Shown here piece by piece: positions 17,898-33,345 of a stretch of DNA of 64,000 bases; the first letter of the stretch is position 1; each line of letters opens with the position of its first letter. The notes beneath the pieces were generated by a model. It did not search any database and was not told the origin of the DNA. It saw only the letters and a list, made by a program, of their open reading frames with translations. The position numbers and the translations under genes are program-made. Origin of the DNA: an uncultured Polycyclovorans sp. (GTDB lineage Bacteria; Pseudomonadota; Gammaproteobacteria; Nevskiales; Nevskiaceae); contig CAYROO010000010.1 of NCBI GenBank assembly GCA_964425915.1, positions 7,314 to 71,313 on the forward strand. Direction: 5' to 3'.

Positions 17898-17959
17898 GAT
17901 CCCCCTCCGGTGATGACGATATAGGTCCATCATCGCGTGTGTCTCCCGTGACATTCCGG

Positions 17960-18898: not shown

Positions 18899-20382
18899 CG
18901 CCAGCCTCCAGGCCGCCCGAGCCAGATCTCACAGCCACCGCGATGGTTGTCGATGTAATGCCAGTCGCCACCCGTCTGCTGCTGGGCGATGGTGGGCCCG
19001 TAGGGGTTGGCGGTGGCGACGAATAGCCCATGCGGCGTCGACGCAAAATTGCGGATGCCCCAGTTGTAGCGGTTACCAAAGGCGTTGCGGGTCACCGGCT
19101 GCCAATGCTCGCCATCGGCGCTGCGCCAGACCTCGGCGCCCCCCAGGTGGGTGGTCAGCCAGTCCCTGCCCCACAAATCGAGTAGGGCCACCGCGTCGGG
19201 CGGCCAGGTGTGCAGCGGCAGATAGGCCAGGTTCTGGCCCCAGCTGAAGGTTCCGGCGTAGAGCCAGCCGTCATGCACGACCATGCGCCACACATAGCCG
19301 TTGAACAGCTTCTCGAAACCCGGCCCCAGCCCCGACAGCGGGTAACGCAGACCCTGGGGTGTGCTGCGCGACTCGCCGACGATCAGCTCCCAGCGGTCAT
19401 CGGGCCAGACGCGAATGATCTCAGCAGCGGCTGGGCCGATGCCCGTGGCGCGGTGAAAGCCACCGTTGAGCACCCCGGTGCCGACATAGAGCGCGCCGCG
19501 AAACGCGCAAAGCGAGACGCCCACTTCGTTAAAGACACCCCGCCCGGCGCCGCGCGCCAGCACCCGGGTCCAGCGATAGGGCAAGTCACCGCCTGCGGTC
19601 TTCCATAACTCGAAGCCGGTCTTGGGGTTGACGGTGGCGGCGTAGAGGTGGCCGTTAAACTCCTCCATCTCGAAGACGGTGACGTTGGCCTTGCTGCCGA
19701 AGCCCTCCTCATTGGCGGCCTGCCAGTCGGCACTCTGAATGTCGTCCGTCGCATAGATGGTGGAGTCGGAGCCGATACTGTCGGAAATCTTGCGGGCGCC
19801 CTGCGATGAGCTGGTCGGCGTGGTGTGGACACGCCCCTGAAACACCTGCAGGGTCCGAAAGGACCGCACTGCCGGGCTGAAAGGCGGACGCGCGGCCGGC
19901 GCAAAGTGACGGCCGTCCTCGCTGCGCAGAATATCCGGCGGATCGGTCAGCTGTGGCGCCCAGGTCGACACATACAGGCAGGGCTTATGGTCGCTGGCGC
20001 CCTGAAAAACGCCGATACCGCGGTAGCCGATGTAGCGCGGCACCTGCAGGTTGCCGCGGCTCGCTGGCACCAGTGGCGCCTGGTACACGCGGGTCCACTG
20101 ATCCTCGGCCGGATCAAAACACCAGATCTCCGCCTGTCGCGGAATGTCGTAGATGAAGTCCGGACTATCGACCGGCCAGGGCCGAATATCCGGACGCAGC
20201 TGGTTCCACTTGTGGGCCGGGATGATCGCCCGGGTGGTGCCGACATACACCCGCCCTTCGAACACGGCCATGCTGTGGGCATAGTGATTCTGCCCATCGC
20301 CAAAGCCGTTGGGGCCGGTCAGACGGAAATCGGCCTCGCCAAGCCCGGCGGCCTCCGGGATGTCGGTGCTCAGGGCAGCCAC
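18895..20382 (-). CDS. Six-bladed beta-propeller-like protein of unknown function
   Basis: Six copies of an F/H-x-G-x-[LV]-[YFH]-x-[GAT]-T motif: FEGRVYVGT, FQGRVHTTP, FNGHLYAAT, FRGALYVGT, HDGWLYAGT, PHGLFVAT. No N-terminal hydrophobic signal peptide. Confidence 0.55.
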   Translation of the reverse strand: MAALSTDIPEAAGLGEADFRLTGPNGFGDGQNHYAHSMAVFEGRVYVGTTRAIIPAHKWNQLRPDIRPWPVDSPDFIYDIPRQAEIWCFDPAEDQWTRVYQAPLVPASRGNLQVPRYIGYRGIGVFQGASDHKPCLYVSTWAPQLTDPPDILRSEDGRHFAPAARPPFSPAVRSFRTLQVFQGRVHTTPTSSSQGARKISDSIGSDSTIYATDDIQSADWQAANEEGFGSKANVTVFEMEEFNGHLYAATVNPKTGFELWKTAGGDLPYRWTRVLARGAGRGVFNEVGVSLCAFRGALYVGTGVLNGGFHRATGIGPAAAEIIRVWPDDRWELIVGESRSTPQGLRYPLSGLGPGFEKLFNGYVWRMVVHDGWLYAGTFSWGQNLAYLPLHTWPPDAVALLDLWGRDWLTTHLGGAEVWRSADGEHWQPVTRNAFGNRYNWGIRNFASTPHGLFVATANPYGPTIAQQQTGGDWHYIDNHRGGCEIWLGRPGGWR

Positions 20383-22721
20383 GACCAGACTTCGACAAAC
20401 AGGAATCGCCAGAGCGCACGAGTGAACACCACCAGCGCGATGTGGCGCTCGCCGGTGGCCTTGCCGACCCCCGTCATCCCCGATTTCAGCCGCTGCTCCT
20501 CATCCTGGAGCGCGATCTGTACACGGACCACCTTGCCGTAACGGGATGCCTCGGCGGCCGGCGCGATGGCCGTGACCTCACCGTCGAACTCGGTGCCCGG
20601 ATAGGCCCACACCTTGGCGGTCGCCGGACGCCCAACGGCCACCTCGCCGACCGCGGACTCCGGCAGTTTGATTTCCGCCTGGCGCAGGCCGGCATCCTCG
20701 ATGACCGCGAGCACTTCGCCGCGCTCCAGATAACGGCCCACTGCGAACTGCAGCCCGCTCGATACCACCCGCCCCGCGATCGGCGCCGTCAGCTCGGTTT
20801 GCGACAGCTGCTCCCGATGGAAGGCCAGCAAGGCCTCCTCGCGAGCAATCTGCGCCTGCACCGCATTGATGTTTTCGTCGCGCGCCGGGCTGGTCAGCAA
20901 TTCCAGGGCGCGCTGCGCCTCGGCCAGCAATTGGGCATCGACTTCAGCGGTGCCGCGGGCGCGATCGAAGTCCTCGACGCTGACGCCGCCCTGCCGATAG
21001 GCGCGCGCCAACCGGTCGGCGCTGCTGCGGGAAAACTCATTGCGCTTGGTGAGCGTGGCGACGCGGCTACGCGCCACTTCGATTTCTTCCTCCCGAGCCC
21101 CCTTTTCCAGCAGGGTCAGGTCGGCACGCAACTGCGCCAGATTGGCCTCACTGGCGGCGACCTTGGCACGCTGCTCCGCATCGGCAATACGCACCAGCGG
21201 CTGCCCGGCAGCGACCATGTCGCCTTCGGCGACCAGCACCTCGCGGATATCGCCGGGCACCAGCGCGCGCACGTCGGCACGCGCCTGCGGCAGGATCTCC
21301 AGGTCGCCACTGGGCTCATAGCGGTAAGGAAACAGGCAGAGCAACAGAATGCCGCCGAAGATGAACCCTTGCCGCCGCGTCGGCCGCCAGGCTTTCAGCT
21401 GCTGCCAGCGTGTATCCCAGCCCAGACCGTCTCGCGGCATCGGCGGCCGCCCCAATTGCTTGAACATGACTACCCCTATCACCGCGAGGATTGCAAGAAA
21501 ACCCAGACCGCCCGTGACGTCGATCAATGCGGGCGCCGAGTAGCGCCCGATCAACAGCAACACCAGGGAACCGAACAGAAAAGTGGCGATGTAGTACGCC
21601 CGCAGCCACCGCTGCGTCAGCGGGCGCAATTGCTGCTGCCATGGCCGGCTTTTGCCGAGAATGGCGAAAAAGGACTGCTGCTTGAGGTCCGGCATGCCGA
21701 CCCAATGCGACAGGAAGGCGTAGCCATCGTAGCGGGCCAGCGGGTTCGCCCGCACCAGCACCGAGGTGGCGATGAGGACCATCAAGGCGGTAAGGCTCTC
21801 GGTCAGCGCCCCACCCTCGCGAAACTGCACCAACCAGACCAGCATGAGCAGACCCATCAGCGCCAGGCTGCCGGTCACCGGCGCGGCGATGATGCGCAGT
21901 CTGACGGATCGCCGGCTGAGCTCGGGAATCCCCCGGGTATCGACCTTGATGACGGGCACCGGCGGCCGGCCCCAGCTCAGTCCCACGCGCGGCGCAGCTG
22001 CACAAAGTCGCGCCACCGCATAGGCACAGCTGGCCTGCGACACCAGGTTGATCAGGACCACCCCTGATGGCAGAGACCACCACAGGCCACCGCTCTGAAC
22101 GTGCTGAACAGCCGCGTCCCACCAAACCATCCGGTGTCCCCACACGGCAGCCAGCAGCAGTATCAACACCATCAGCCCCAGCAGGCCCGCAGATCGGCTG
22201 ATCAGCGGCCAGGCAAACAGTCGTCCCAGTGCAACGAACGGCGCGGCCGCCAGCGGCCGGTCCAAGGCACTGTCGTGGCCGGCACCCACATAGAACTTGT
22301 GAAGCCCCCCCACCAGTGCCGGCTGCGCTAACGACCCCGGCACCGTCGACGGCACCAGGGCTGCCGCGCGGTTGGCGCGAATCGGGCGGCCACGACGTTC
22401 GGCTTCGTTCCAGGCCAGCGTATTGCGGGGCACCGGAATCGGCTCCAGCCGTCCCGGCGCCAGCAGTGCATGCTGTCCGAGCCAGGCCTCGATGTCGCGA
22501 CATCGCGACGGGTCGATCCCGGCCTCCGCCGCCATCGCCCAGCGCTGTTCCGGGGCACGGGCGCCGTTGAGGGCTTCGGCGACCCGCTGCACGCTGCGAT
22601 CGTCGGCAGGCCAGGCTTCCGACAACTGCAGCCGCCGGCCGAGCTCATCGACCGGAATGCGCAGGCTGAGATAGCGCGACGCAGCGCTCACGGCGTGCCG
22701 GGTACGCGGACTGGCGTCCAT
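20370..22721 (-). CDS. Fusion of a polytopic inner-membrane domain (site-2-protease-like, HExxH lost) with a HlyD-family periplasmic adaptor
   Basis: About 130 aa of soluble N-terminus, then about 8 hydrophobic segments (aa ~160-470). The C-terminus has a lipoyl-like segment, a coiled-coil hairpin and a beta-barrel typical of HlyD/MFP. NPLARYDG (21723-21746) resembles the S2P NxxPxxxxDG motif. No HExxH occurs anywhere in the protein. Confidence 0.7.
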   Translation of the reverse strand: MDASPRTRHAVSAASRYLSLRIPVDELGRRLQLSEAWPADDRSVQRVAEALNGARAPEQRWAMAAEAGIDPSRCRDIEAWLGQHALLAPGRLEPIPVPRNTLAWNEAERRGRPIRANRAAALVPSTVPGSLAQPALVGGLHKFYVGAGHDSALDRPLAAAPFVALGRLFAWPLISRSAGLLGLMVLILLLAAVWGHRMVWWDAAVQHVQSGGLWWSLPSGVVLINLVSQASCAYAVARLCAAAPRVGLSWGRPPVPVIKVDTRGIPELSRRSVRLRIIAAPVTGSLALMGLLMLVWLVQFREGGALTESLTALMVLIATSVLVRANPLARYDGYAFLSHWVGMPDLKQQSFFAILGKSRPWQQQLRPLTQRWLRAYYIATFLFGSLVLLLIGRYSAPALIDVTGGLGFLAILAVIGVVMFKQLGRPPMPRDGLGWDTRWQQLKAWRPTRRQGFIFGGILLLCLFPYRYEPSGDLEILPQARADVRALVPGDIREVLVAEGDMVAAGQPLVRIADAEQRAKVAASEANLAQLRADLTLLEKGAREEEIEVARSRVATLTKRNEFSRSSADRLARAYRQGGVSVEDFDRARGTAEVDAQLLAEAQRALELLTSPARDENINAVQAQIAREEALLAFHREQLSQTELTAPIAGRVVSSGLQFAVGRYLERGEVLAVIEDAGLRQAEIKLPESAVGEVAVGRPATAKVWAYPGTEFDGEVTAIAPAAEASRYGKVVRVQIALQDEEQRLKSGMTGVGKATGERHIALVVFTRALWRFLFVEVWSWLP

Positions 22722-22740
22722 GGACGTCCGACGTCGGCCA

Positions 22741-24129
22741 TCAGGGCGTGAGCGCGACGGCGCCCGACAGCAAGCGGTTGAGATGAACCGCGTCGGCCGC
22801 GACCAAGGTGCCGGCAGCCTGCTTCAGCGCCAATGACTGCAATAGCAGCTCGTAGCGCAGAGCCTGGTAGCGCACCTCCGCCGCAAAGCGCTGCTCCAGT
22901 GCGTTGAACACATCGGCACTGGTCCGGGTGCCGGCCTCGAAACCGGCACGCGTCCCGGACTCGGCAAGTCGGGCGGCCTCCACCGCATCCTGCAATGCGC
23001 TGACCTGTTGTTGCGCCGCCATCATGCCAAGAAATGCCTTGCGTGCGGCGAACACCGCATCGGTCTGCGCCTGTTCCAGGGCTGCTTCGGCGCGGATCCG
23101 CTGGAGGTCGGCCTGATCGATAACCGCACTGAGCTGCCCGCCCGAGAACAGCGGCATTGCGGCCCGCAGACCGATCCGCGCTTCTCGCTCGTCACGCTCG
23201 CCGGCGAGCCCGCCGCCGGCATCAATCTGATAGGCGGCTCCGACAATATCCAAGGTGGGCCAGCGGCCGCGGTGCGCCTTACGGACATCCAGTTCCGCCA
23301 ACCGCAAGGACAGCGCAGCCTGCAACACCTGCGGGTTGTCAGTGCGGGCACGCTCGACCCAGGCGTACTCGTCGGGCGGATTCGGCAGCAGGCCGTTGAA
23401 GCTGGGCGACAGGCCCAGAATACGCGCATCGCGGCGGCCGGCCGCGGCATGAAGGCGGCGGGTGGCGATGCGGGCATCCGACTCCACCTCCGTCCGCCTC
23501 GCCACCGCCAGCTTCACTGCCGCCTCGGCATACTGGCGTTCCGCCTCGGTGGTGAGCCCGGCATCGGCCTGACTGACCACCTGGTCCCGTTGCTGACGCA
23601 CCGCACTCAAGCGGGCCTTGGCCAATCCCACCGCTTCCTGGGCCGCCAGTGCACCGAAGTAGGCCTCCGCTACGTCCAGCAGCAAGCCGCTGCGTTGCGC
23701 CTTCAGCGCCAGTTGCGATTGCTGTTCCCGCACTTCGGCCTGATCGAGCTCGGCCCACAGAGTGGGCTGCACGACGGCCTGGCTGAGGTTGACCCCGTAA
23801 AGATACCGCTCGTATTCGTCTTCGCGGTCGACGTCAACGATGCCGAAATAATCACCGGTGATGGATTCATCGACATAGGCGCCCTCGGCAAACGCCGAGA
23901 GTTGCGGCAACAGCTTGCCGCGCGCACGCTCGATGCCGCGGGCGGCCACCGCCGCCAGGGCGTCCGCACTGCGAGCGTCAGGGTGGTTCCGCAGGGCATC
24001 ACCGTAGTAGCTGACCAGGTCCGCGGTGTCCTCCGCTGCCACTGCCAGCGGTGCCAGCAGGATCGACAACACCATCAGCAGCACGCGACGTTGCCCGCCC
24101 CGGGCGGTGCCCCAGCAATATTCAGCCAT
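22741..24129 (-). CDS. TolC-family outer-membrane efflux protein
   Basis: Signal peptide followed by two tandem repeats of long alpha-helical and beta segments typical of outer-membrane factors. 462 aa. It lies 19 nt upstream of the adaptor-fusion gene. Confidence 0.85.
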   Translation of the reverse strand: MAEYCWGTARGGQRRVLLMVLSILLAPLAVAAEDTADLVSYYGDALRNHPDARSADALAAVAARGIERARGKLLPQLSAFAEGAYVDESITGDYFGIVDVDREDEYERYLYGVNLSQAVVQPTLWAELDQAEVREQQSQLALKAQRSGLLLDVAEAYFGALAAQEAVGLAKARLSAVRQQRDQVVSQADAGLTTEAERQYAEAAVKLAVARRTEVESDARIATRRLHAAAGRRDARILGLSPSFNGLLPNPPDEYAWVERARTDNPQVLQAALSLRLAELDVRKAHRGRWPTLDIVGAAYQIDAGGGLAGERDEREARIGLRAAMPLFSGGQLSAVIDQADLQRIRAEAALEQAQTDAVFAARKAFLGMMAAQQQVSALQDAVEAARLAESGTRAGFEAGTRTSADVFNALEQRFAAEVRYQALRYELLLQSLALKQAAGTLVAADAVHLNRLLSGAVALTP

Positions 24130-24302
24130 GTCGTTCGTTCATTGGTAGGTCCCCGGTGCCCGCGCTCTGGCCACCAGGAGCGCGCTAGCTTGCCTCAAGT
24201 CGTCAAGCGAAAATGTAAGACAATGCCGTGATCATCGGACTCGTCGCCGAGCCGGTCCCCGGCCGGTGCAGGATACCGAGATTGCCGTTGGAGGGCATAT
24301 CT

Positions 24303-24662
24303 ATGTGGCCATTGCTGTTGATATTTGCTGTCGCCATCGCCGCCCTGGGCTGGCGTCTGCGTCAGCTTTCCCGGCTGATGAGCCGGATGGAAACCGAGCT
24401 TTCAGCGCTGGCGGGCGCCCGAGCGTTGGAGGGTCCGGACGTCGAGGCATTGCTGGCGCCGGAGCGTCCCAGCCTCATCACCATCGAGATCCTCAACCCG
24501 TTTGAACTGGCCATGCGCGAATCCAAGCTCGCCGGCACCTTCGGGTCGCTGGCACCGGCCCTGGTCCGCCAGGAAGTGCTGCGTCAGGCCACTCAGCGGG
24601 TGCGTCAGCAACTGGCCGAACAGGGCGTTGAAGCCGAGGTGCAGCTTGTTCGTGGCCGCTAG
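24303..24662 (+). CDS. Small membrane-anchored hypothetical protein
   Basis: ATG preceded by GGAGGG. N-terminal TM segment (MWPLLLIFAVAIAALGW) followed by a helical region. No recognised family. Confidence 0.5.
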   Translation: MWPLLLIFAVAIAALGWRLRQLSRLMSRMETELSALAGARALEGPDVEALLAPERPSLITIEILNPFELAMRESKLAGTFGSLAPALVRQEVLRQATQRVRQQLAEQGVEAEVQLVRGR

Positions 24663-25092
24663 TGCCGGGCTGCTGGCGGTCGGCCTGATCGCGCTGCTGC
24701 TGGTGGAACGCGCCTTGTCGCGTCGCGCCCGGCACTGGGCGCGAATGGCAAGACGCCTGGCTGTGCGGGCCCACGATGCCGAGCTTCGCATCGAGCAACA
24801 GCAGCGGCTGGCGGACATGCAGCGCCGGGCCGAGCAGGCGGTGGAACAGACCAATGCCACGGTGCGCGCCATCCACCGCGGCATCGCCCGGATCCCCTTT
24901 GGCATCCTGTCGCGCTTACAGGCGACTCGGGCACCCGCACGCGTGGTGGAAGTGGTCCACGACGAAACCAGCGATGTGGTCTATGACAGCATCTCGGCGG
25001 TGAATCGACTGGTCGGCGCCCAGGTCCGGCGAGGCCTGCGCCCCCAGGAAGACCTGCCGACACTGAAGTCCGATGATCCGCCCCCGCTATGA
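24652..25092 (+). CDS. Hypothetical membrane-anchored coiled-coil protein
   Basis: Candidate GTG 24652 or TTG 24646 start inside ORF 24502..25092. It has a TM segment (AASAGLLAVGLIALLLV) and then a charged helical region. The start is uncertain. Confidence 0.4.
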   Translation: MAASAGLLAVGLIALLLVERALSRRARHWARMARRLAVRAHDAELRIEQQQRLADMQRRAEQAVEQTNATVRAIHRGIARIPFGILSRLQATRAPARVVEVVHDETSDVVYDSISAVNRLVGAQVRRGLRPQEDLPTLKSDDPPPL

Positions 25093-25122
25093 TCCAGCCT
25101 CCGCTTCCATCCGCACCTCGCC

Positions 25123-25671
25123 ATGACCGCCCATGCACGCTACGCACCCATCAGCATCGCCCTGCACTGGTTCATGCTGCTGTTGTTGGCGGCCACCTAC
25201 GCGTGCATTGAACTGCGCGAGCTGTTTCCCCGCGGCAGCGACCCGCGCGAGCTGATCAAGACCTGGCATTTCATGTTGGGCCTGAGCGTTTTTCTGCTGG
25301 TGTGGGTCCGACTGCTGGCGCGCTGGCGCCACCCGGCACCGCCCATCATCCCGACCCCATCCCGCTGGCAGCAGAGACTGGCGGCCGCCATGCACATGGC
25401 GCTTTATGGCCTGATGCTGGGTATGCCAATCGGGGGCTGGCTGATCCTCAGTGCCGAAGGAAAGCCGGTCCCTTTCTTTGGCCTGACCCTGCCGCCCCTG
25501 ATGGGCCCGGATGCCGACACGGCCGAGCTGATCGAGGAGCTCCACGAAACCTTCGGGGTGATCGGCTACTGGCTGATCGGCCTGCATGCCGCGGCCGGCC
25601 TCGTGCACCACTACCTTCTGCGGGACAATACGCTGGAGCGTATGCGCCCTCTTCGCAGGACCGAAGGATGA
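25123..25671 (+). CDS. Cytochrome b561 family protein
   Basis: The N-terminal ISIALHW, four hydrophobic helices and conserved His positions (HW, WHF, MH, LH) are typical of the CybB family. 182 aa. Confidence 0.8.
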   Translation: MTAHARYAPISIALHWFMLLLLAATYACIELRELFPRGSDPRELIKTWHFMLGLSVFLLVWVRLLARWRHPAPPIIPTPSRWQQRLAAAMHMALYGLMLGMPIGGWLILSAEGKPVPFFGLTLPPLMGPDADTAELIEELHETFGVIGYWLIGLHAAAGLVHHYLLRDNTLERMRPLRRTEG

Positions 25672-25901
25672 AGCGCGGACGTCACCCGATGCTGAACCGA
25701 ACCGCCGTCGGCGCAGGCCTGGTGATGCTGCTCGGCGGCTGCGCCCCAGTGCAGCCCTGGCAGCGGGGCGACCTTGCCCGCGAGGACATGCAACTGATTT
25801 CCGATCGAGCCCAGGCGGCCTTCGAGGACCACGCCTATTTCAGCAAGGAGGGCTCGAGCGGTGGCCGCGGCTTTGGTGGTGGAGGTTGTGGATGCAACTG
25901 A
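25668..25901 (+). CDS. DUF4266-like small lipoprotein, copy 1 (C-terminal GGGGCGCN)
   Basis: ATG overlaps the cytochrome b561 stop (ATGA). Lipobox LLGGC. Mature ~53 aa end in SSGGRGFGGGGCGCN. Family name is from memory. Confidence 0.7.
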   Translation: MKRGRHPMLNRTAVGAGLVMLLGGCAPVQPWQRGDLAREDMQLISDRAQAAFEDHAYFSKEGSSGGRGFGGGGCGCN

Positions 25902-27154
25902 GGCCGGGGCTACTGGGTGCCGCAGCTGCTGCGATGCTGGGCGCCCCTGAGGCCGCGCCGGCCGAAACCACCTGGGACGTCGACGCCGCAACATTGCTCT
26001 ACAGCGAATTTGATGGCCGCGTCAGCGGCATCGAGTCTCGACTCCGAGGCGGTCGCGAACTCGACGACATCCGGCAGTTGAGCCTGGGCGCGACGGTTGA
26101 CGTCCTGGTGGGCGCGTCCCCCAACGGGGCGCTGCCGGCGGACGCACCTCAAACCTTCTCGCGGCCATCCGGCAAGGGCGACTACACGACGCAAGCCGGC
26201 GATCTGCCACTGGACGATACGTTTCAGGACACCCGACTCGCACTGGACGTGGCTTACCTGCACACACTTGACGTGCTTCGCGCCAAGGCGACCGGCTTTA
26301 TCTCGGCCGAGTACGACTACCTCTCCATTGCCCTCGGTGGCGTCATCGCCAGAGACTTCAACCTCCGAAACACCACGGTGAGCCTCGGCATCAATGTGGC
26401 CCAGGACACACTGGATCCGGTGGGCGGCCCCCCGAAAGCGCTATCCATCATGCCCGCCCCCGGTCAGCCCACCGGCCGTACGGTGCGCACCCTGGAAAAG
26501 CAGGTCCACGACCTGCTGCTCAGCTTGACGCAGGTCCTCAGCGCGCAATCGCTACTGCAGGTCAGCTACTCCATGAGTCACGCACGTGGGTATCTGACCG
26601 ACCCCTATAAGGTGCTGTCGGTGGTCGACGGCCAGGGTGCGCCGCTGCGTTACGCTTACGAGGGTCGGCCAGACCGCCGCCTCAAGCAGGCCGTCTACGC
26701 CCAGTACAAACAGCTCACCGCCGGCGCTAACGTGCTCGACACGTCGGCGCGGCTGATGCGTGATGACTGGGGCCTGCAGTCGTTGACCCTGGATGTCAGC
26801 TTTCGATTCAACTTCAGGCCCGACCGCTATCTAGAACCCCATCTACGTTGGTACCGACAATCCGCCGCCGACTTTTATCGGCTCGCCTTGTTCGATGGCG
26901 AGGAGACAGCTTTGCGATTCGCCACTTCGGACCAACGCCTCGGTCGTTTCGATGCGATCACGCTGGGCCTGAAGTATGGCGGCCGGCTGCGCTCCGGTAA
27001 TGACTGGAACATCCGGCTCGAGGGGTATACCCAGATTGCCGAGATCGCAGGCCTTTCCGCGCAAGCTGCGCAAGCGCTGGCAGCGCGAGCCATCGAGCCC
27101 GAACTCGACGCGGTGATGCTCAGCGCGGGATACCGGTTTCGCTGGACACCATGA
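25892..27154 (+). CDS. DUF3570-like predicted outer-membrane beta-barrel protein, copy 1
   Basis: ATG 25892 lies inside the last codons of the DUF4266-like gene. It has a signal peptide, alternating beta-strand pattern and C-terminal ...GYRFRW. It is paralogous to 28792..30045. Confidence 0.7.
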   Translation: MQLRPGLLGAAAAAMLGAPEAAPAETTWDVDAATLLYSEFDGRVSGIESRLRGGRELDDIRQLSLGATVDVLVGASPNGALPADAPQTFSRPSGKGDYTTQAGDLPLDDTFQDTRLALDVAYLHTLDVLRAKATGFISAEYDYLSIALGGVIARDFNLRNTTVSLGINVAQDTLDPVGGPPKALSIMPAPGQPTGRTVRTLEKQVHDLLLSLTQVLSAQSLLQVSYSMSHARGYLTDPYKVLSVVDGQGAPLRYAYEGRPDRRLKQAVYAQYKQLTAGANVLDTSARLMRDDWGLQSLTLDVSFRFNFRPDRYLEPHLRWYRQSAADFYRLALFDGEETALRFATSDQRLGRFDAITLGLKYGGRLRSGNDWNIRLEGYTQIAEIAGLSAQAAQALAARAIEPELDAVMLSAGYRFRWTP

Positions 27155-28071
27155 CGACGCGCTGGACCCTTCATCCCGCAGCTGGCGGCCGCCGTTGCCG
27201 CATCCAATTTTCGGCAATGGCCTCTCCCTGTGAGATCTGGGTCGACGGCGCCTCGCCCGACACTTGGCCGGATCTCGCCGAATGCGCCTATCAGGAGGCC
27301 CATCGCATCGAGCGGAAGTGGAGCCGATATCGCGATGACAACTTGATTCACCGGATCAACTCGGCCAACGGATCTGAAACCGAAGTCGACGAAGAAACCG
27401 CGCGTCTGCTCGACTATGGCGCGGTGCTGTTCGAAGCGAGCGAGGGTCGCTTCGACCTGACGTCTGGAAGGCTACGTCAGGCATGGCGATTCGACGGCCG
27501 CCATCGTCTGCCGGACCCAAAGCAGATTGAACAGCTGCTGCACCATGTGGGCTGGCATCGGGTTCGCTGGCAGCGGCCGATTCTGCAGATGCCGGCGGGC
27601 ATGGAGGTCGATCTGGGTGGCATTGGCAAGGAGTACGCGGTCGACCGCAGCCTGGCCTTGTTGCAAGCCCATACCGATGCCGCGCTGCTGGTGAACTATG
27701 GTGGCGATCTCGCCGCCAATCGGGCGCCTGCAGGGGACAGCCCCTGGCGTGTTGGAATCGGCGATGAGGGCCAGCCGGAGGGTGGCACCCCGCTCATCCG
27801 ACTGCGCAATGGCGGCATCGCCACCAGCGGCGATGCGCACCGGTTCATCGAGGTCGATGGCATCCGATACGGGCATGTCCTAGACGCCCGCACCGGCTGG
27901 CCGCCGCCTCGGGCACCCCATTCCGTCACCGTCGCTGCCAGCACCTGTAGTCAGGCGGGCAGCCTGTCAACCCTGGCCATGCTGAGCGGCACCGGTGCGG
28001 AAGCCTTTCTGCGCGATCAAGGTGTCGACTTCCATGTCCAGCGCGCCACCGCCGGGGCATCCCCGGGTTAA
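27151..28071 (+). CDS. apbE: FAD:protein FMN transferase (ApbE family)
   Basis: DLGGIGKEYA, IATSGD and YGHVLDARTG motifs. The start overlaps the upstream stop (ATGA). No N-terminal signal peptide or lipobox is evident. Confidence 0.85.
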   Translation: MTTRWTLHPAAGGRRCRIQFSAMASPCEIWVDGASPDTWPDLAECAYQEAHRIERKWSRYRDDNLIHRINSANGSETEVDEETARLLDYGAVLFEASEGRFDLTSGRLRQAWRFDGRHRLPDPKQIEQLLHHVGWHRVRWQRPILQMPAGMEVDLGGIGKEYAVDRSLALLQAHTDAALLVNYGGDLAANRAPAGDSPWRVGIGDEGQPEGGTPLIRLRNGGIATSGDAHRFIEVDGIRYGHVLDARTGWPPPRAPHSVTVAASTCSQAGSLSTLAMLSGTGAEAFLRDQGVDFHVQRATAGASPG

Positions 28072-28148
28072 CGAATGTTCATGTCCTCAACAGGCTGGGG
28101 ACAGACCGCAAAGCGGACACTGGCACTTCATCAACAGCGTGGAGTGTC

Positions 28149-28592
28149 ATGTCAAAACTGTCGACCCTGCTGGGCGGCTTGCTGATTGGATTTTCAGCCG
28201 TGGCCGCCGCCAACCCGGCCCTGGAGGTCCTCAAGCCCTACCGCGGCAAACCGGTATACGTTGATTTCTGGGCCTCCTGGTGCGTGCCCTGCGCGCAATC
28301 GTTCCCATGGCTCAATGACATGCGCTCACGGTATGGCGACGACATCCAGTTTGTCGGCGTCAATGTGGATGAACATCGACGGGATGCCGACCGATTCCTG
28401 AAACGCCACCCCGCCCAGTTCGATCTGCTGTTCGATCCCGCAGGCGCGATGGCCACTCATTTCGCGCTGGAAGGCATGCCAAGCGCCGTGATTCTCGATG
28501 CCAACGGTCAGGTGCTGTGGCAACACAGCGGCTTCCGCGCTGCAGAAACCCCGAACTACGAACAGGCGATTCAGGAGGCCATTCGTCCATGA
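28149..28592 (+). CDS. TlpA-like periplasmic thiol:disulfide oxidoreductase (thioredoxin fold)
   Basis: Signal peptide plus the WASWCVPCAQSFPW CxxC motif. 147 aa. Confidence 0.85.
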   Translation: MSKLSTLLGGLLIGFSAVAAANPALEVLKPYRGKPVYVDFWASWCVPCAQSFPWLNDMRSRYGDDIQFVGVNVDEHRRDADRFLKRHPAQFDLLFDPAGAMATHFALEGMPSAVILDANGQVLWQHSGFRAAETPNYEQAIQEAIRP

Positions 28593-28801
28593 TCAAGCGA
28601 CTTTCCCTCACGCTGGCCCTGGCGCTGATCGCCAGCGCCTGTGCGCCGGTGCAACCCTGGCAACGCGGCACCCTCGCGCGGCCGGACATGCAGCTCGTGA
28701 CCGACCCGGCCCAGGCCGCTTTTGAAGACCACACCTATTTCAGCAAGGAAGCCTCCAGCGGCGGCCGTGGCTTTGGCGGAGGGGGCTGCGGATGCAACTG
28801 A
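28589..28801 (+). CDS. DUF4266-like small lipoprotein, copy 2
   Basis: ATG overlaps the TlpA-like stop (ATGA). Lipobox LIASAC. The mature region is 46/53 identical to copy 1 and ends in the same GGGGCGCN. Confidence 0.7.
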   Translation: MIKRLSLTLALALIASACAPVQPWQRGTLARPDMQLVTDPAQAAFEDHTYFSKEASSGGRGFGGGGCGCN

Positions 28802-30045
28802 AACCGAATGCCTTGAGCGCGGCCGCGCTCGCCCTACTGGGGTCGACGGGCACCCAGGCTGCCGATACCGGCAAATGGCAATTCGACGCCGCCACCCTCG
28901 TCTACAGTGAGGCTGACAGCCGCGTTCAGGCAGTCGAGCCGAAGCTGCGCGCCACCCGCGCGCTCGACAATGACCGGAGCATCAGCGCGGCCGTGACAGT
29001 CGACGTCCTCACCGGCGCCTCCCCCAACGGCGCCGCCCCCGCCGACAGCCCACAGACCTTCACCAGCGCCTCCGGCAACAAGCCCTACACGGTAGACGCG
29101 TTCGAAACGCCACTGGATGACGACTTCCGTGACACCCGTGTGGCAGTGGACGGCAGCTTCACCACGCCGGTGGGCGATCAGACCCTGACCACATCACTGG
29201 CGGCATCCAAGGAATACGATTACCTGTCGATCTCTGCAGGTGCGGTGCTGTCGAAGGACTTCAACCGCAACAACACCACGGTCAGTGCCGGCATCAACGT
29301 GGCCAACGACACCATTGATGCCGTCGGCGGAGCGCCAGTGCCGCTGTCGGTGATGCCAGCGCCCGGCAATCCACGGCCAGAAACAACCGAAACCAAGCAG
29401 ATCTACGATCTGTTGTTCAGTGTGACGCAGGTGCTATCGCCGGTCAGTCTGATGCAGATCAGCTACTCGCTGAGCCAGTCGGACGGCTATCTCAACGATC
29501 CTTACAAACTGCTGTCGGTGGTGGACGCCAACGGGGACCCATTGCGCTACGTCTACGAATCTCGACCGGACACGCGCCTCAAGCATGCGCTGTTCGCGCA
29601 GTACAAGCGTTTTGTATTCGGGCGCGACGTGATCGACGTATCACTCCGACTCATGAGCGACGACTGGGGTATCACGTCCGAAACCCTGGATACCACCTAC
29701 CGCTGGAACTTCTCCGAAACCCGATACCTGGAGCCGCACCTCCGCTACTATCGTCAAAGCGAAGCCGATTTCTATCGGGCGGCCTTGTTCGACGGTGAGG
29801 AGAACACGCTGACCGAGGCCAGTGCAGATCCGCGCCTCGGCCAGTTCGATGCCGTCACGGTGGGCTTGAAGTATGGCCAAACCCTCCCCAGCGGTAACGA
29901 GTGGAATGTGCGCCTTGAGGCGTACACCCAGCTCGGCAAGACCAGCGGGGTACCCGCACAGGCCGCTGCCGGACTCAGCCGTTTCGACCTGGAGCCTACG
30001 CTCGATGCGCTGATGCTCACTGCGGGCTACCGCTTCAGCTGGTAG
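28792..30045 (+). CDS. DUF3570-like predicted outer-membrane beta-barrel protein, copy 2
   Basis: It has the same 10-nt overlap (ATGCAACTGA) with its DUF4266-like partner as copy 1. It also has a signal peptide and a C-terminal GYRFSW. Confidence 0.7.
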   Translation: MQLKPNALSAAALALLGSTGTQAADTGKWQFDAATLVYSEADSRVQAVEPKLRATRALDNDRSISAAVTVDVLTGASPNGAAPADSPQTFTSASGNKPYTVDAFETPLDDDFRDTRVAVDGSFTTPVGDQTLTTSLAASKEYDYLSISAGAVLSKDFNRNNTTVSAGINVANDTIDAVGGAPVPLSVMPAPGNPRPETTETKQIYDLLFSVTQVLSPVSLMQISYSLSQSDGYLNDPYKLLSVVDANGDPLRYVYESRPDTRLKHALFAQYKRFVFGRDVIDVSLRLMSDDWGITSETLDTTYRWNFSETRYLEPHLRYYRQSEADFYRAALFDGEENTLTEASADPRLGQFDAVTVGLKYGQTLPSGNEWNVRLEAYTQLGKTSGVPAQAAAGLSRFDLEPTLDALMLTAGYRFSW

Positions 30046-30144
30046 GACAGCGGGCGCGTGAACGAGACCCGCCCGGTGTCGACAACCGGCTACCCTATGC
30101 AGGCTGACGATTCGGTCAGCCTGCCGCGGGGGAGCGGCTGTACC

Positions 30145-30828
30145 ATGCGGATCTTGATCATCGAAGATGACGCCGAGCAGGCGCGTTTCCTGCTCAAGGG
30201 CTTGCGCGAAAGCGGGCATCGGGTGGACCACGCCGCCAACGGCCGTGACGGTCTGTTTCTGGCCGTCTCAGAGCCCTACGACCTGTGTATCGTCGACCGC
30301 ATGCTGCCGCAGATGGACGGGCTCGCCGTGATCACGGCTTTGCGTGCCGCCGGCCAGCAGACGCCGGTCATCATCCTGTCAGCCCTCGGACAGGTCGACG
30401 ACCGCGTGCGCGGGCTGAAGGCGGGCGGCGATGACTATATCGTCAAGCCCTATGCCTTCCAGGAGTTGCTGGCACGAATCGAGGCCATCACCCGTCGAGG
30501 CAGCCCGACGGTGGCGGCTGAGGCAACTGTGCTGCGGGTTGCCGACCTTGAACTCGACCGCCTGTCGCGAACCGTGCGCCGCGGCGCCCACACCATCGAT
30601 CTCAAGCCGCAGGAATACCGCCTGCTGGAATACCTGATGCGTCACGCCGGCCAGGTGGTCACCCGCACCATGCTGCTGGAGGGGGTCTGGGACTACCACT
30701 TCGATCCGCAGACCAATGTCATTGACGTCCACATTTCACGCCTGCGCGCCCGAATCGACCCGGCCGGCAATCGACCGTTGATCCATACCATCCGCGGCGC
30801 TGGCTATTGTCTTCGGGACGAAAGCTGA
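30145..30828 (+). CDS. OmpR-family response regulator
   Basis: MRILIIEDD receiver start, the phospho-acceptor region IVDRMLPQMDG, and a C-terminal winged-helix domain (LKPQEYRLLEYL...IHTIRGAGY). The internal ATG was chosen over ORF start 30058. Confidence 0.88.
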   Translation: MRILIIEDDAEQARFLLKGLRESGHRVDHAANGRDGLFLAVSEPYDLCIVDRMLPQMDGLAVITALRAAGQQTPVIILSALGQVDDRVRGLKAGGDDYIVKPYAFQELLARIEAITRRGSPTVAAEATVLRVADLELDRLSRTVRRGAHTIDLKPQEYRLLEYLMRHAGQVVTRTMLLEGVWDYHFDPQTNVIDVHISRLRARIDPAGNRPLIHTIRGAGYCLRDES

Positions 30829-32216
30829 TGACCTGGCGCTTCCGCCCGGGCCTTCTGCTCCGGCTTGCGCTGACCAATGCCCTAGTGTTCAGTGTGGGCG
30901 CCGGCCTGGTCATCTTCAGCATCACCTCGCTCAGCCTGAAGTACCTGCAGGGTCACCTCGACGAAAGCGTCACCGCAGAACTGGAGATCCTGGAGTCTGA
31001 CTACGTGATCGACGGGCTCACGGGTGTGGTCGGACTCATCCGTGAACGCGACCGTCTCGAATCCGCATGGCATGGCCGGATCTATCGCCTGGAAACACCG
31101 GACGGCCAGGTGCTCGCGGGCGACTTCCCGCACTGGCCGGAAGCCCTCGACATCGGCGCGGGGCCCATTGCAACATCGGCACAGATCACGCCCGGGGCGC
31201 CGATAACCGAGTGGATGATGGCCGCCCGCCTGCTACCCGGCGGCGAACGCCTGCTGGTCGGCTTTGATCGTACCGAGACGCTCGCGCTGTCTTCGCAGAT
31301 CCGTCGTGCTGCCGGGTGGAGCATCCCCCTGGCGGTGCTGCTGGCGGTGATCGGCAGCATTGCCGCCAACCGCACCGCAGCACGGCAGATCCGCACCATC
31401 GATGCCAGTGCGCGACGCATCGTCGAGGGTGACTTGCGGCACCGTATTCCGCTACAGGGCAGCGGTGATGAACTGGACCGCCTGACCCAGACCCTCAACA
31501 CCATGCTCGACCGGATCAATGACCTGATCGCCGCGACCCGGGGCGCCACCGACGCCATTGCGCACGACCTGCGCACGCCGCTCGCGCGCTTGCGCGTGGC
31601 GCTGGAAGATGCCCAGCCGCACCCGCCGAGTGCAGATCAGTGGCATCCCTGGCTACAGGACCGTGTCGATGACATAGACCGCGTACTCGGCAGCTTCTCG
31701 GCACTGCTGCAACTGGCCACGGTGGAGTCGGGCGTGCTGAGAACCCAATTCCAGTCCGTGGGCCTGGCGACGGTGGTCAGTGACGTGGTGTCCCTGTACG
31801 AGGCGGTGGCCGCTGACGCGGACTGCACCCTGAGATTCAGCGCAGTAGAGGGCAATACGCCCATCATGGGCGACCGCCACCTGCTGTTTCAGGCCATCGC
31901 CAATCTGCTCGACAATGCCCTCAAGTTCACGCCGAAGGGCGGTCAGATCCAAATACGGCTCACGCGCGAAGGCAGCCACCTCCAGTTGGAGGTCGAGGAC
32001 AGCGGTCCGGGCATTCCCACCGGCGACGAGGAGCGGGTATTCGAGCGGCTGTTCCGCCACGACCACGCACGCCAGTCTGCCGGCTTTGGTCTGGGGCTCA
32101 GCCTGGTCCGCGCAATCGCGCGCCTGCATGACGGCGACTGCGTGGTGGTGCCGAAGGCGCAGGGCGCGCTGTTGCGGATCCGCCTACCGGTAGCTCAGAG
32201 AAACTCGCAGAGGTAG
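30828..32216 (+). CDS. Sensor histidine kinase (two TM segments, HAMP, HisKA, HATPase)
   Basis: H-box IAHDLRTPL, N-box LLDNALKFT, G-boxes DSGPGI and GFGLGLS. The start overlaps the response-regulator stop by 1 nt. Confidence 0.88.
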   Translation: MTWRFRPGLLLRLALTNALVFSVGAGLVIFSITSLSLKYLQGHLDESVTAELEILESDYVIDGLTGVVGLIRERDRLESAWHGRIYRLETPDGQVLAGDFPHWPEALDIGAGPIATSAQITPGAPITEWMMAARLLPGGERLLVGFDRTETLALSSQIRRAAGWSIPLAVLLAVIGSIAANRTAARQIRTIDASARRIVEGDLRHRIPLQGSGDELDRLTQTLNTMLDRINDLIAATRGATDAIAHDLRTPLARLRVALEDAQPHPPSADQWHPWLQDRVDDIDRVLGSFSALLQLATVESGVLRTQFQSVGLATVVSDVVSLYEAVAADADCTLRFSAVEGNTPIMGDRHLLFQAIANLLDNALKFTPKGGQIQIRLTREGSHLQLEVEDSGPGIPTGDEERVFERLFRHDHARQSAGFGLGLSLVRAIARLHDGDCVVVPKAQGALLRIRLPVAQRNSQR

Positions 32217-32476
32217 GCGGCGGGCCCGTCCACCGGGCTGACGTCGAAGCCGCTGTTGGCGGCGATTTCGAAAGCGGTGCCGGCCGGGTATAGCGCCCAT
32301 TCGCCTGCGTCCGGCCGCACCCGCAGCTGCCCACTGACCACGGTCATGCGCTCTGCCGCCTCGGTGCCGAAGTGGTAGGTCCCGGGGGCAATGACACCAA
32401 CCGTGGCCCGACGACCATGACGTTCGTATCCGACACTCTGGACGCCGCCATCGAAATAGCTGTTGTGCTTGAGCAT
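32195..32476 (-). CDS. ppnP: Pyrimidine/purine nucleoside phosphorylase PpnP (YaiE/DUF1255 family)
   Basis: 93-aa core MLKHNSYFDGGVQSVG...GTYHFGT...E.M.VVSG is characteristic of PpnP. The start is set at the internal ATG. Confidence 0.8.
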   Translation of the reverse strand: MLKHNSYFDGGVQSVGYERHGRRATVGVIAPGTYHFGTEAAERMTVVSGQLRVRPDAGEWALYPAGTAFEIAANSGFDVSPVDGPAAYLCEFL

Positions 32477-32580
32477 ATCGCCTCTGATCAATGAGAAATA
32501 CCGTGAAGGGCGGCGCATTGTAGCGGCACGATGGCCTACACTTTGCTTCCCTGAAATCACTCCCGAGCAGGAACGCTGTC

Positions 32581-33345
32581 GTGATCAAACGCGTGGTATT
32601 CAACCAGAAGGGCGGTGTCGGCAAGACCACCATCGTCGCCAATCTCGCCGCCATCGCCGCCAGCCGCGGTCTACGCACCCTGGTGATCGATCTCGACACC
32701 CAGGGGAACGCCAGCCAGTACCTGCTGGGCTCGTCGGTCACCCCGGCCGAGACCATCGCGGACTTCTTCGAGGGCACGCTGTCGTTCTCGCTCAGTCAGC
32801 CGGGGTTTGCCAGCTTTGCCACCGCCACCCCGTTCGACAACCTCGATGTTGTGGCCGCCAGCCCACGACTCGATGAGCTGATCGTCAAACTGGAAGCCAA
32901 GCAGAAGATCTATAAGCTGCGGGACGCCCTGCGCAAGCTGCGGGGCTACGATGCGGTGTTCATCGACACCCCACCCGCGCTGAACTTCTACAGCCGCTCC
33001 GCCCTGATTGCGGCGGACCGGGTGCTGATCCCCTTTGACTGCGACGAGTTCGCCCGCCAGGCGCTGTATACGTTGTTGGAGAACCTGCAGGAGCTGAAGG
33101 CCGACCACAATGAAGACCTGCAGGTCGAAGGCATCGTGGTCAACCAGTTCCAGTCGCGCTCGCGGCTGCCGCAACGGCTGGTCGACGAGCTGCGCGAGGA
33201 GGGTCACCCCGTGATGGCGCAGACGCTGTCCAGCTCGGTGAAGGTCAAGGAGTCCCACGAGCACCACCGCCCGCTGGTGTGGGAGGATCCCCGCCATCGC
33301 GTTACCCAGGAGTACCTGGCGCTGTTTGCGGCGCTGGACGCCTGA
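32581..33345 (+). CDS. ParA/Soj-family ATPase (orphan; no adjacent parB)
   Basis: Deviant Walker A motif NQKGGVGKTT, and Walker B motif VFIDTPP. 254 aa. Confidence 0.85.
   Translation: MIKRVVFNQKGGVGKTTIVANLAAIAASRGLRTLVIDLDTQGNASQYLLGSSVTPAETIADFFEGTLSFSLSQPGFASFATATPFDNLDVVAASPRLDELIVKLEAKQKIYKLRDALRKLRGYDAVFIDTPPALNFYSRSALIAADRVLIPFDCDEFARQALYTLLENLQELKADHNEDLQVEGIVVNQFQSRSRLPQRLVDELREEGHPVMAQTLSSSVKVKESHEHHRPLVWEDPRHRVTQEYLALFAALDA

Follow-up and report, generated by a model that had tools for sequence, protein, structure and literature searches.

The window analysed here is a stretch of 64,000 nt (64 kb) from an uncultured Polycyclovorans sp. of the order Nevskiales. It contains a plus-strand row of 11 genes that encodes ApbE, two DUF3570 barrels, two DUF4266 lipoproteins, a thioredoxin-like protein, a cytochrome b561 and a two-component system (Table 1). 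ApbE is an FAD:protein FMN transferase (FAD, flavin adenine dinucleotide; FMN, flavin mononucleotide). An earlier interpretation made from the DNA letters alone (the sequence-only reading) had described these genes as an eleven-gene operon, with DUF4266 and DUF3570 genes duplicated around apbE and tlpA. All 11 open reading frames (ORFs) lie where it placed them and in the order that it gave.

Table 1. Features of the redox gene row and its neighbours in the window
Feature	Positions	Strand	Match or remark
g1, 119 aa, one N-terminal transmembrane helix, no family	24303-24662	+	no Pfam or NCBIfam match
g2, ~148 aa, one N-terminal transmembrane helix, no family	24646-25092	+	no Pfam or NCBIfam match
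CybB-like, predicted di-haem cytochrome b561, 182 aa	25123-25671	+	PF01292, 5e-28
DUF4266-A lipoprotein, lipobox LGGC, CGCN at 25887-25898	25668-25901	+	PF14086, 3e-22
DUF3570-A barrel, 420 aa, predicted FMN acceptor Ser76 in DVLVGAS (26099-26119)	25892-27154	+	PF12094, 9e-105
ApbE FAD:protein FMN transferase, without signal peptide	27151-28071	+	PF02424, 9e-62
77-nt spacer 5' of tlpA, candidate internal promoter/operator	28072-28148	+	spacer alignment with Flagellatimonas
TlpA/ResA/DsbE-like periplasmic thioredoxin, CVPC at 28281-28292	28149-28592	+	Redoxin, 2e-16
DUF4266-B lipoprotein, CGCN at 28787-28798	28589-28801	+	PF14086, 4e-24
DUF3570-B barrel, 417 aa, predicted FMN acceptor Ser77 in DVLTGAS (29002-29022)	28792-30045	+	PF12094, 1e-120
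Perfect 10-bp hairpin GCAGGCTGAC-GATTCG-GTCAGCCTGC	30099-30124	+	between barrel B and regulator gene
OmpR-family response regulator, CopR/CusR/HprR ("heavy metal") class	30145-30828	+	Response_reg and Trans_reg_C
Sensor histidine kinase: transmembrane helix, ~130-aa periplasmic sensor, transmembrane helix, HAMP, HisKA, HATPase_c	30828-32216	+	Pfam
PpnP nucleoside phosphorylase ORF	32195-32560	-	121 aa listed, 93 aa by gene caller
TolC-family protein	22741-24129	-	
783-aa protein, polytopic N-terminal part fused to HlyD/RND adaptor	20370-22721	-	weak match to daptide HExxH intramembrane metalloprotease
495-aa protein, no family	18895-20382	-	
Sulfotransfer_3	17960-18898	-	
522-aa protein	16386-17954	-	weak PA-domain match

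The overlaps that had been claimed between start and stop codons (at 25668, 25892, 27151, 28589, 28792 and 30828) can all be read in the DNA. Three are ATGA overlaps (25668-25671, 27151-27154 and 28589-28592). The same 10-nt overlap, ATGCAACTGA, occurs at 25892-25901 and 28792-28801, and the regulator stop and kinase start have one base in common (30828). These overlaps couple b561 through apbE, tlpA through barrel B, and the regulator with the kinase. The gene row also contains non-coding gaps of 30 nt (25092/25123), 77 nt (28071/28149) and 99 nt (30045/30145). The description as an eleven-gene operon therefore goes too far: with these gaps, a single transcript is no more than possible, and g1-g2 appears as an independent pair. 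A scan of positions 23900-32700 for sigma-70 promoters and terminators found nothing above the shuffled expectation.

An independent gene caller was available for an identical arrangement, L091, and its calls agree with ours except at the ApbE start. It places the ApbE start at Met23 (27217), and with that start the overlap at 27151 would vanish. We favour the ATG at 27151 because the residues 5' of AMASPCE are conserved in about 80 homologues. The g2 gene starts at TTG 24646 or GTG 24652, and either start overlaps g1. For the regulator, the likeliest start is ATG 30145 and not GTG 30058.

Hidden Markov model (HMM) searches placed both lipoproteins in PF14086 (DUF4266) with 79.8 and 85.9 bits (cut-off 27). 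The barrels scored 351.4 and 403.6 bits against PF12094 (DUF3570; cut-off 25; model positions 3-427). ApbE scored 209.4 bits against PF02424 (cut-off 25.6), and it matched TM1553 at 1e-38 and solved FMN transferases at about 1e-24. The family names that the sequence-only reading had given, DUF4266 and DUF3570 included, were correct. So was its claim of a duplication. The copies are true paralogues, with barrels 58% and lipoproteins 70% identical.

The module to which these families belong has been described before. The DUF3570 protein of Chlorobium luteolum was shown experimentally to be flavinylated by its cognate ApbE at [S/T]GA[S/T] motifs (Meheust et al. 2021, eLife 10:e66878, PMC8238504). 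The same study found ApbE, DUF3570, a thioredoxin-like protein and DUF4266 together in 543 clusters, 227 with DsbD and 316 without it. It remarked on the CXC motif of DUF4266 and proposed a hybrid thioredoxin/flavin system that is fed by DsbD and whose function is uncertain. Its main text does not mention a barrel fold, b561/PF01292 or a missing ApbE signal peptide. Nor are the barrel fold, b561/PF01292 or signal-less ApbE brought up in a 2024 follow-up or in a review of ApbE from 2025. The sequence-only reading had described this neighbourhood as recurring but functionally uncharacterised. The association is real, but its flavinylation step was published in 2021; one biochemical step, not the physiological role, is thus assigned in the literature. 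The reading had named such an assignment as grounds for refutation, and this applies in part. The broader idea of a redox pathway is partly supported, but it missed that ApbE and DUF3570 are enzyme and substrate.

The window contains the same four families as the published "DsbD system", together with the flavinylation motif and the CXC lipoprotein. It is a member of the class without a co-located DsbD (the 316 clusters). It differs from the published clusters in a CybB-like b561 gene that overlaps the module. It also contains two barrel/lipoprotein pairs with one ApbE, in the order L-B-A-T-L-B and not T-L-B-A (T, TlpA-like thioredoxin; L, DUF4266 lipoprotein; B, DUF3570 barrel; A, ApbE). What is known is the module with one demonstrated biochemical step. 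What is new is a duplicated, permuted and b561-coupled locus with a CopRS-like system.

We annotated 80 genome loci and 11 context loci by tblastn, from a genome scan built on a 21-sequence alignment. The full-flank subset was made up of the 47 loci whose flanks reached 5 kb or more to each side. In this subset, DUF3570 occurred with ApbE in 47/47 loci, with DUF4266 in 47/47 and with TlpA in 43/47. DsbD was present within 3 kb of the module in 12/47. An OmpR-type two-component system directly adjoined the module in 11/47; these systems came from several families and were mostly on the same strand, 3' of ApbE. The canonical order, TlpA-DUF4266-DUF3570-ApbE, was found in 80+ loci, and DUF4266 was beside DUF3570 in 85/86. 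The recurrent neighbours of T-L-B-A in the 86 loci were histidine kinases (23), DsbD (20) and response regulators (20). All-against-all clustering of 1246 flanking ORFs from the 86 loci yielded no further recurrent partner enzyme, so the four-gene unit looks self-contained.

Barrel B had 2055 relatives among the scored candidates of a 90%-clustered collection. A representative library contained 959 at E <= 1e-10, and the module spans several phyla. The nearest named organisms are all Nevskiales (Flagellatimonas, 75% identity; Polycyclovorans, 70%; Sinimarinibacterium, 65%). Module hosts include the sulfur oxidisers Thiodiazotropha, Thiomargarita and Chromatiales and many non-sulfur bacteria. 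At one metagenomic locus (L004, 2344-3978), the module adjoins YeeE/YedE-type sulfur-transport genes, an ArsR/HTH_20 regulator and a YgaP-like transmembrane protein. These neighbours hint at a sulfur connection in some hosts.

The sequence-only reading had predicted that the DUF3570 proteins are outer membrane barrels. An AlphaFold model of high confidence agrees with this, as does an aromatic signal at the C-terminus. The AlphaFold2 model of copy B was made from a 98-sequence alignment. It had a predicted local distance difference test (pLDDT) score of 93.5, a predicted template-modelling score (pTM) of 0.88 and 16 long antiparallel strands. Residues 1-22 had a pLDDT of <50 and were disordered and signal-peptide-like. 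A Foldseek search of the PDB with copy B retrieved solely outer membrane barrels (FadL, OmpG, OccK, AlgE, BamA and PelB). The TM-scores were 0.36-0.45, so the match is one of general barrel shape and singles out no particular family. The C-terminal residue is F, W or Y in 78/98 relatives, and copy B ends in YRFSW. Barrels A and B contain no cysteines.

The ApbE motif is conserved at D71 (98/98), G75 (98/98), A76 (90/98) and S/T77 (98/98). The DVLTGAS of copy B matches [S/T]GA[S/T] exactly. Copy A keeps the Asp, Gly, Ala and acceptor Ser and has Val at the variable -3 position, as do 5/98 relatives. Each copy has one site, and the second motif of the C. luteolum protein is absent from both; at least two motifs were found in just 10/98 family members. 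In FMN_bind carriers, ApbE links FMN by a phosphoester to the last Ser/Thr of Dxx[st]GA[ST] (PMC8238504). Like these carriers (NqrC, RnfG, PplA and NosR/PceC), DUF3570 combines an ApbE motif with a role, here a proposed one, in extracytosolic electron transfer. Unlike them, it is predicted to be an integral outer membrane beta-barrel without an FMN_bind domain, and its cognate ApbE does not contain the usual lipoprotein signal.

The position of the motif points to one end of the barrel. The seven turns of periplasmic parity are 2-5 aa long, with 0 positions conserved at >=90%. The loops of extracellular parity L2 (76-112), L5 (233-260) and L7 (323-350) have 21/47 positions conserved at >=90%. 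Conserved strand residues are mostly loop-proximal (E40, D71, G75, D114, R116, S139, E141, D143, R286, D290, R318 and Q322), and the ApbE motif sits where strand 3 enters L2. From strand parity, loop length and conservation in the model, we infer that the active site, including the flavin, would lie at the outer end of the barrel. The porin-cytochrome conduits MtrCAB and PioAB likewise combine a barrel with a redox partner, by analogy and not by homology. The module does not contain their CxxCH haem motifs; its cofactors would be FMN and a dithiol, and its modelled barrel has 16 strands. The MtrB barrel has 26.

The DUF4266 lipoproteins have the lipoboxes LGGC (copy A) and ASAC (copy B), each followed by Ala-Pro. 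The lipobox Cys was present in 92/92 recovered DUF4266 copies, and the next residue was mostly small and never Asp. By the E. coli +2 rule, DUF4266 is therefore an outer membrane type of lipoprotein. The C-terminus GGGGCGCN occurs in both window copies and in 92/92 recovered copies. The tail consensus, also 92/92, is HxYFSKE(A/G)(S/A/T)(S/A)GG-x-x-(F/Y)(G/A/S)GGGCGCN-COOH. Its Gly-Cys-Asn-stop codons contain the ATG-CAA-CTG that opens the barrel gene. An ATG was found at this barrel-start overlap position in 43/92 copies, and the 10-nt overlap is annotated in L001-L003. The strict adjacency and the translational coupling point to a 1:1 lipoprotein-barrel complex. We found no natural DUF4266-DUF3570 fusions among 268 proteins.

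The tail contains a glycine-rich arm of about 13 residues, which is long enough for the barrel lumen. Comparable arms are known elsewhere. Erv2p passes electrons to its flavin through a C-terminal Cys-Gly-Cys arm, and SoxY has a glycine-flanked C-terminal Cys carrier arm (GGCGG-COOH). DUF4266 resembles both in a flexible, glycine-rich C-terminal Cys arm, by analogy and not by homology. It differs in having no sequence or fold kinship with them, in a mature lipoprotein of about 50 aa and in an arm whose role is predicted. LptDE and RcsF-OmpA/C/F are lipoprotein-barrel complexes in which the lipoprotein lies partly in the lumen. They offer an analogy to DUF4266/DUF3570, again with no homology.

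Counted from its first possible start codon, the window ApbE begins with about 20 non-hydrophobic residues, followed by the domain start F-x-A-M-A-S-P-C-E. It scored 85 bits against NF007774, the model for canonical periplasmic ApbE lipoproteins of the E. coli/Salmonella type, whose cut-off is 498. A hydrophobic N-terminus was absent from ApbE in essentially all of the ~80 loci, including those of Nitrospiria, Elusimicrobiota and Gemmatimonadales. A few longer N-terminal extensions look like a spurious upstream ORF. The DUF3570-linked ApbEs (window 27151-27240; L001-L087) have in common F-x-A-M-(A/G)-S-P-C-E with its conserved Cys. This motif and the missing signal peptide set them apart as a subfamily from the periplasmic lipoprotein ApbEs. 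Because no signal peptide is encoded in the module loci, this ApbE appears to be cytoplasmic.

The barrel is exported and its ApbE has no signal, so FMN may be attached to the unfolded barrel precursor before Sec export. We infer this as the simplest reconciliation of a cytoplasmic ApbE with an exported barrel. When signal-less DUF3570 and ApbE were produced in the E. coli cytoplasm, the DUF3570 protein was in the insoluble pellet and was purified under denaturing conditions, yet it was flavinylated (PMC8238504). Flavinylation before export would fit this result, since a cytoplasmic, insoluble DUF3570 was modified. If true, it would spare the need for a periplasmic FAD supply. According to the 2025 ApbE review, cytosolic ApbEs are known for cytosolic fumarate reductases only.

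The thioredoxin-like protein, with its signal peptide and CVPC motif, matches Redoxin and other thioredoxin-fold families. It scored below the equivalog cut-offs for TlpA (NF047696; 46.7/230 bits), ResA (69.6/170) and DsbE/CcmG (65.1/123). On these scores it is a predicted TlpA-like periplasmic thioredoxin and an orthologue of no named one. A tblastn search of the window with two DsbDs (from L004 and L005) found no DsbD (PF02683) at E < 1e-4. The source of reductant must therefore lie elsewhere.

The b561 gene encodes a protein that scored 98.4 bits against PF01292 (cut-off 30.1). It aligned with E. coli CybB (PDB 5OC0) at 4.5e-39. CybB is a superoxide:quinone oxidoreductase. The window protein is like CybB in its full-length alignment, its four transmembrane helices and its conserved aligned histidines. 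It is unlike CybB in falling below the equivalog cut-off (NF008566; 145 bits against 170) and in the coupling of its gene to a flavinylation module. To our knowledge, E. coli cybB has no such coupling.

A PF01292 gene is directly beside the module in Nevskiales and farther off in L067/L071, L024, L041 and L056. In the Nitrospiria locus L060 it lies 52 nt 3' of ApbE. When the genes are rearranged within Nevskiales, b561 follows the module and not g1-g2. A functional link between b561 and the module is favoured by this and by the position next to ApbE in L060. The cytochromes are of at least two PF01292 subtypes. One is the 182-aa CybB-like protein of the window, L001 and L006, with relatives of about 32% identity in Acinetobacter and L041. 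The other, of 254 aa, is that of L002 and L056 and has more weakly related members in L060, L024 and L063. We rejected b561 as a single orthologous partner family on this account. The association of b561 with the module that the sequence-only reading had pointed to does recur, but within 5 kb in 6/47 loci and with non-orthologous genes.

Three syntenic versions of the locus are present in Nevskiales, with common flanks. TolC/HlyD-like genes lie upstream, and PpnP, ParA, DnaJ and DnaK lie downstream. The Flagellatimonas locus (L001) has the order g1-g2-b561-T-L-B-A-RR-HK (RR, response regulator; HK, histidine kinase). The locus L006 comes from a closer relative (ParA 94% identical) and has g1-g2-b561-L-B-A; its DUF4266 gene is present though missing from its annotation. 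The window has g1-g2-b561-L-B-A-T-L-B-RR-HK. The order L-B-A-T-L-B was found in no other species; the identical L091 encodes the same barrel protein and comes from the same organism. A second barrel was found in two other loci only, L004 (T-L-B-A-DsbD-B) and L005 (T-L-B-T-L-B-A-DsbD).

The two halves of the window locus have different closest relatives. Barrel A shares 82% identity with the only barrel of L006 and 64% with that of Flagellatimonas; for barrel B the figures are 58% and 75%, respectively. The spacer after apbE is homologous to the b561-tlpA spacer of Flagellatimonas (L001 9275-9351), with an alignment score of 9.5 against -5.9 +/- 3.5 for shuffles (maximum 4.0). Both spacers contain GCGGACACTG and a GTTCA element. 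By this alignment, the tlpA block retains what would be the ancestral 5' spacer. The conservation of this spacer between the window and Flagellatimonas points to a possible promoter or operator that belongs to the tlpA block itself.

In the simplest history, the ancestor contained b561, T-L-B-A and RR-HK. After a duplication of the module, the first copy of tlpA and the second copy of apbE would have disappeared, and L006 would later have dropped the entire second block. Both barrels retain all 16 family-invariant residues and both lipoproteins retain the complete tail, so both pairs look functional. We propose that one ApbE serves both. A hairpin (Table 1) that occurs once in the window and lacks a T-run lies in the gap where the second apbE presumably was lost. 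The region around it (30040-30150, 111 nt) folds at -58.5 kcal/mol (z = -3.4). It is possible that the hairpin acts as an attenuator, an RNA-stability element or an operator.

From these features we read the core of the locus, positions 25123-30045, as a variant of the ApbE/DUF3570 module that would form a haem-free thiol-to-flavin relay ending in the outer membrane. We put the probability of this reading at somewhat under one half (about 0.45). ApbE would flavinylate the unfolded barrel precursors in the cytoplasm. The flavinylated precursors would then cross by way of Sec and be inserted by BAM. Each lipoprotein would dock on its own barrel, and its flexible CGC arm would reach the FMN through the lumen. 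The TlpA-like thioredoxin (CVPC), fed by a DsbD or CcdA encoded elsewhere, would reduce the CGC disulfide, and the CGC arm would reduce the FMN on DUF3570. The FMN would hand its electrons to an acceptor at or beyond the outer membrane. Through b561 the relay would be tied to the quinone pool; the cytochrome would serve as an alternative port for electrons or would scavenge superoxide made by the exposed flavin. The two-component system, of the CopRS/CusRS/HprRS class, would induce the genes on an envelope metal or oxidant signal.

Several points weigh against this relay. Its electron flow and localisation are an in-silico proposal. The place of the FMN was derived from strand parity and from loop length and conservation in a predicted structure. 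The predicted contact between lipoprotein and barrel comes from gene coupling and co-occurrence. We know of no precedent for Sec export of an FMN-bearing precursor. L006 encodes b561-DUF4266-DUF3570-ApbE without TlpA, which makes TlpA dispensable there and cuts against an obligatory step from TlpA to DUF4266. Because L006 keeps b561 without TlpA or the two-component system, the cytochrome and not the thioredoxin may be the constant partner here. The cytochromes b beside the module are of at least two unrelated subtypes and are near it in a minority of loci (6/47 within 5 kb). In Moraxellaceae and Cellvibrionaceae, the two-component systems next to the module share only about 36% identity with that of the window.

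The two-component system bears on a rival proposal, the handling of metals. The regulator matches Response_reg (5e-26) and Trans_reg_C (8.5e-28), and the kinase matches HAMP (9.2e-11), HisKA (5.3e-06) and HATPase_c (6.5e-27). The regulator scored best against TIGR01387 (CztR/SilR/CopR; 258.6 bits, below 279.2), then against CusR and HprR. The kinase scored best against TIGR01386 (CztS/SilS/CopS; 200.4 bits, below 292.55). The heavy-metal class is thus the nearest for both proteins, which are candidate members below the cut-offs. The best-scoring families, CusRS, CopRS and HprRS, have the same architecture as the window pair, but solved sensors include no relative of the window sensor domain. 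A search of solved structures with this domain found no relative; the best E was 0.64, a noise match to lactoferrin. Orthologues of the system are confined to Nevskiales, with regulators 75-84% and kinases 44-59% identical. We rejected it as a universal partner because regulators outside Nevskiales are about 36% identical. A dedicated regulator is a recurrent theme, but not one regulator family.

If the locus served metal handling, the flavinylated barrel at the outer membrane would reduce Cu(II) or Fe(III), whether to detoxify the metal or to take it up, and the CopRS-like system would sense the metal. The CxC tail would bind Cu(I), and the TlpA-like protein would keep metal-binding thiols reduced. 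In Sco and CoxB, the cysteines of the copper site are reduced by TlpA proteins; in CCS and metallothioneins, Cu(I) is bound by CxC motifs. These precedents speak for such a function, as do the best matches of both signalling proteins to heavy-metal subfamilies (258.6 and 200 bits). The ferrous iron transporter VIT1 is present in 25 published DUF3570 clusters (PMC8238504). However, both scores are under the curated cut-offs, the peroxide-sensing HprRS belongs to the same subfamily, and among solved metal sensors the sensor domain has no match. Genes for metal transporters, chaperones or multicopper oxidases do not recur around the module in the 86 loci, and the two-component system is lineage-specific. 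We consider metal handling unlikely as the role of the locus.

It may also be that the functional unit is smaller, DUF4266-DUF3570-ApbE with or without TlpA. The b561, the two-component system and g1-g2 would then be unrelated neighbours that a compact genome has brought close together, and the second barrel pair would be a copy that is redundant or in decay. The g1-g2 pair does fit this description. The two genes overlap, and each encodes an N-terminal transmembrane helix and a predicted cytoplasmic Arg/Gln-rich helical domain. For the g2 protein, a search of 5.8 billion proteins gave only 13 homologues, each of them Nevskiales-like. In Panacagrimonas (L088 7643-8471) the pair lies amid unrelated genes without b561 or DUF3570, and in L090 (7652-8426) it lies beside the TolC cluster without b561 or the redox module. 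Because the pair occurs without redox genes, it lies outside the module, and we rejected g1 and g2 as dedicated subunits on this genomic context. They are probably an independent, Nevskiales-restricted two-gene unit and co-directional passengers.

The other neighbours divide the evidence on a minimal unit. The b561 neighbours are non-orthologous and a minority, the two-component systems differ among lineages, and L006 has neither the second pair nor a two-component system. On the other side, the b561 gene and the first DUF4266 gene have an ATGA overlap, and b561 stays by the module through the Nevskiales rearrangements when g1-g2 does not. An OmpR-type pair adjoins the module in 11/47 full-flank loci, from several families. 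Both barrels keep the 16 invariant residues and both lipoproteins the full tail, which does not suit a decaying duplicate. A unit without these partners seems improbable.

The relay could also run in the oxidative direction, as a sulfhydryl oxidase or sulfur carrier in which the CGC arm takes electrons or a sulfur adduct from periplasmic thiols by way of the thioredoxin-like protein and passes them to FMN and then to O2 or, by way of b561, to quinone; b561 would also remove the superoxide by-product. An arm that feeds a flavin would follow the Erv2p design and a Cys carrier arm the SoxY design, CGCN-COOH is invariant (92/92 copies), b561 is close to a superoxide:quinone oxidoreductase and the hosts include sulfur oxidisers (Thiodiazotropha, Thiomargarita and Chromatiales). 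However, TlpA/ResA-type CxxC proteins are usually reductants, the reductant supplier DsbD is the commonest accessory membrane partner (12/47 loci; 227 published clusters) and most hosts are not sulfur oxidisers. We give this direction little credence.

Two sets of neighbouring genes lie outside the row (Table 1). A conserved minus-strand cluster of five genes (16386-24129) is divergent from the module. It occurs together in L001 and L006, and L090 has four of its genes, from the sulfotransferase to TolC. It looks like an export or modification system. The PpnP ORF runs convergently into the last 20 nt or so of the kinase gene, and this tail-to-tail overlap is also present in L001.

The relay in its strongest form would make DUF3570 and DUF4266 a haem-free conduit through the outer membrane, with FMN installed before export and served by the CGC swinging arm. 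We hold this form to be doubtful. If true, it would be a redox wire of a new kind for the outer membrane and would set the first example of a secreted protein that is flavinylated before export. How reducing power reaches the Gram-negative outer membrane when no multihaem cytochromes are involved is poorly understood, and the module is widespread. The new inferences over the published flavinylation are a flavin at the outer end of the barrel, a 1:1 CGC lipoprotein and a cytoplasmic ApbE. The organism of the window offers handles on all of this, with two diverged pairs on one ApbE, a coupled cytochrome and a regulator whose signal may point to the physiological role.

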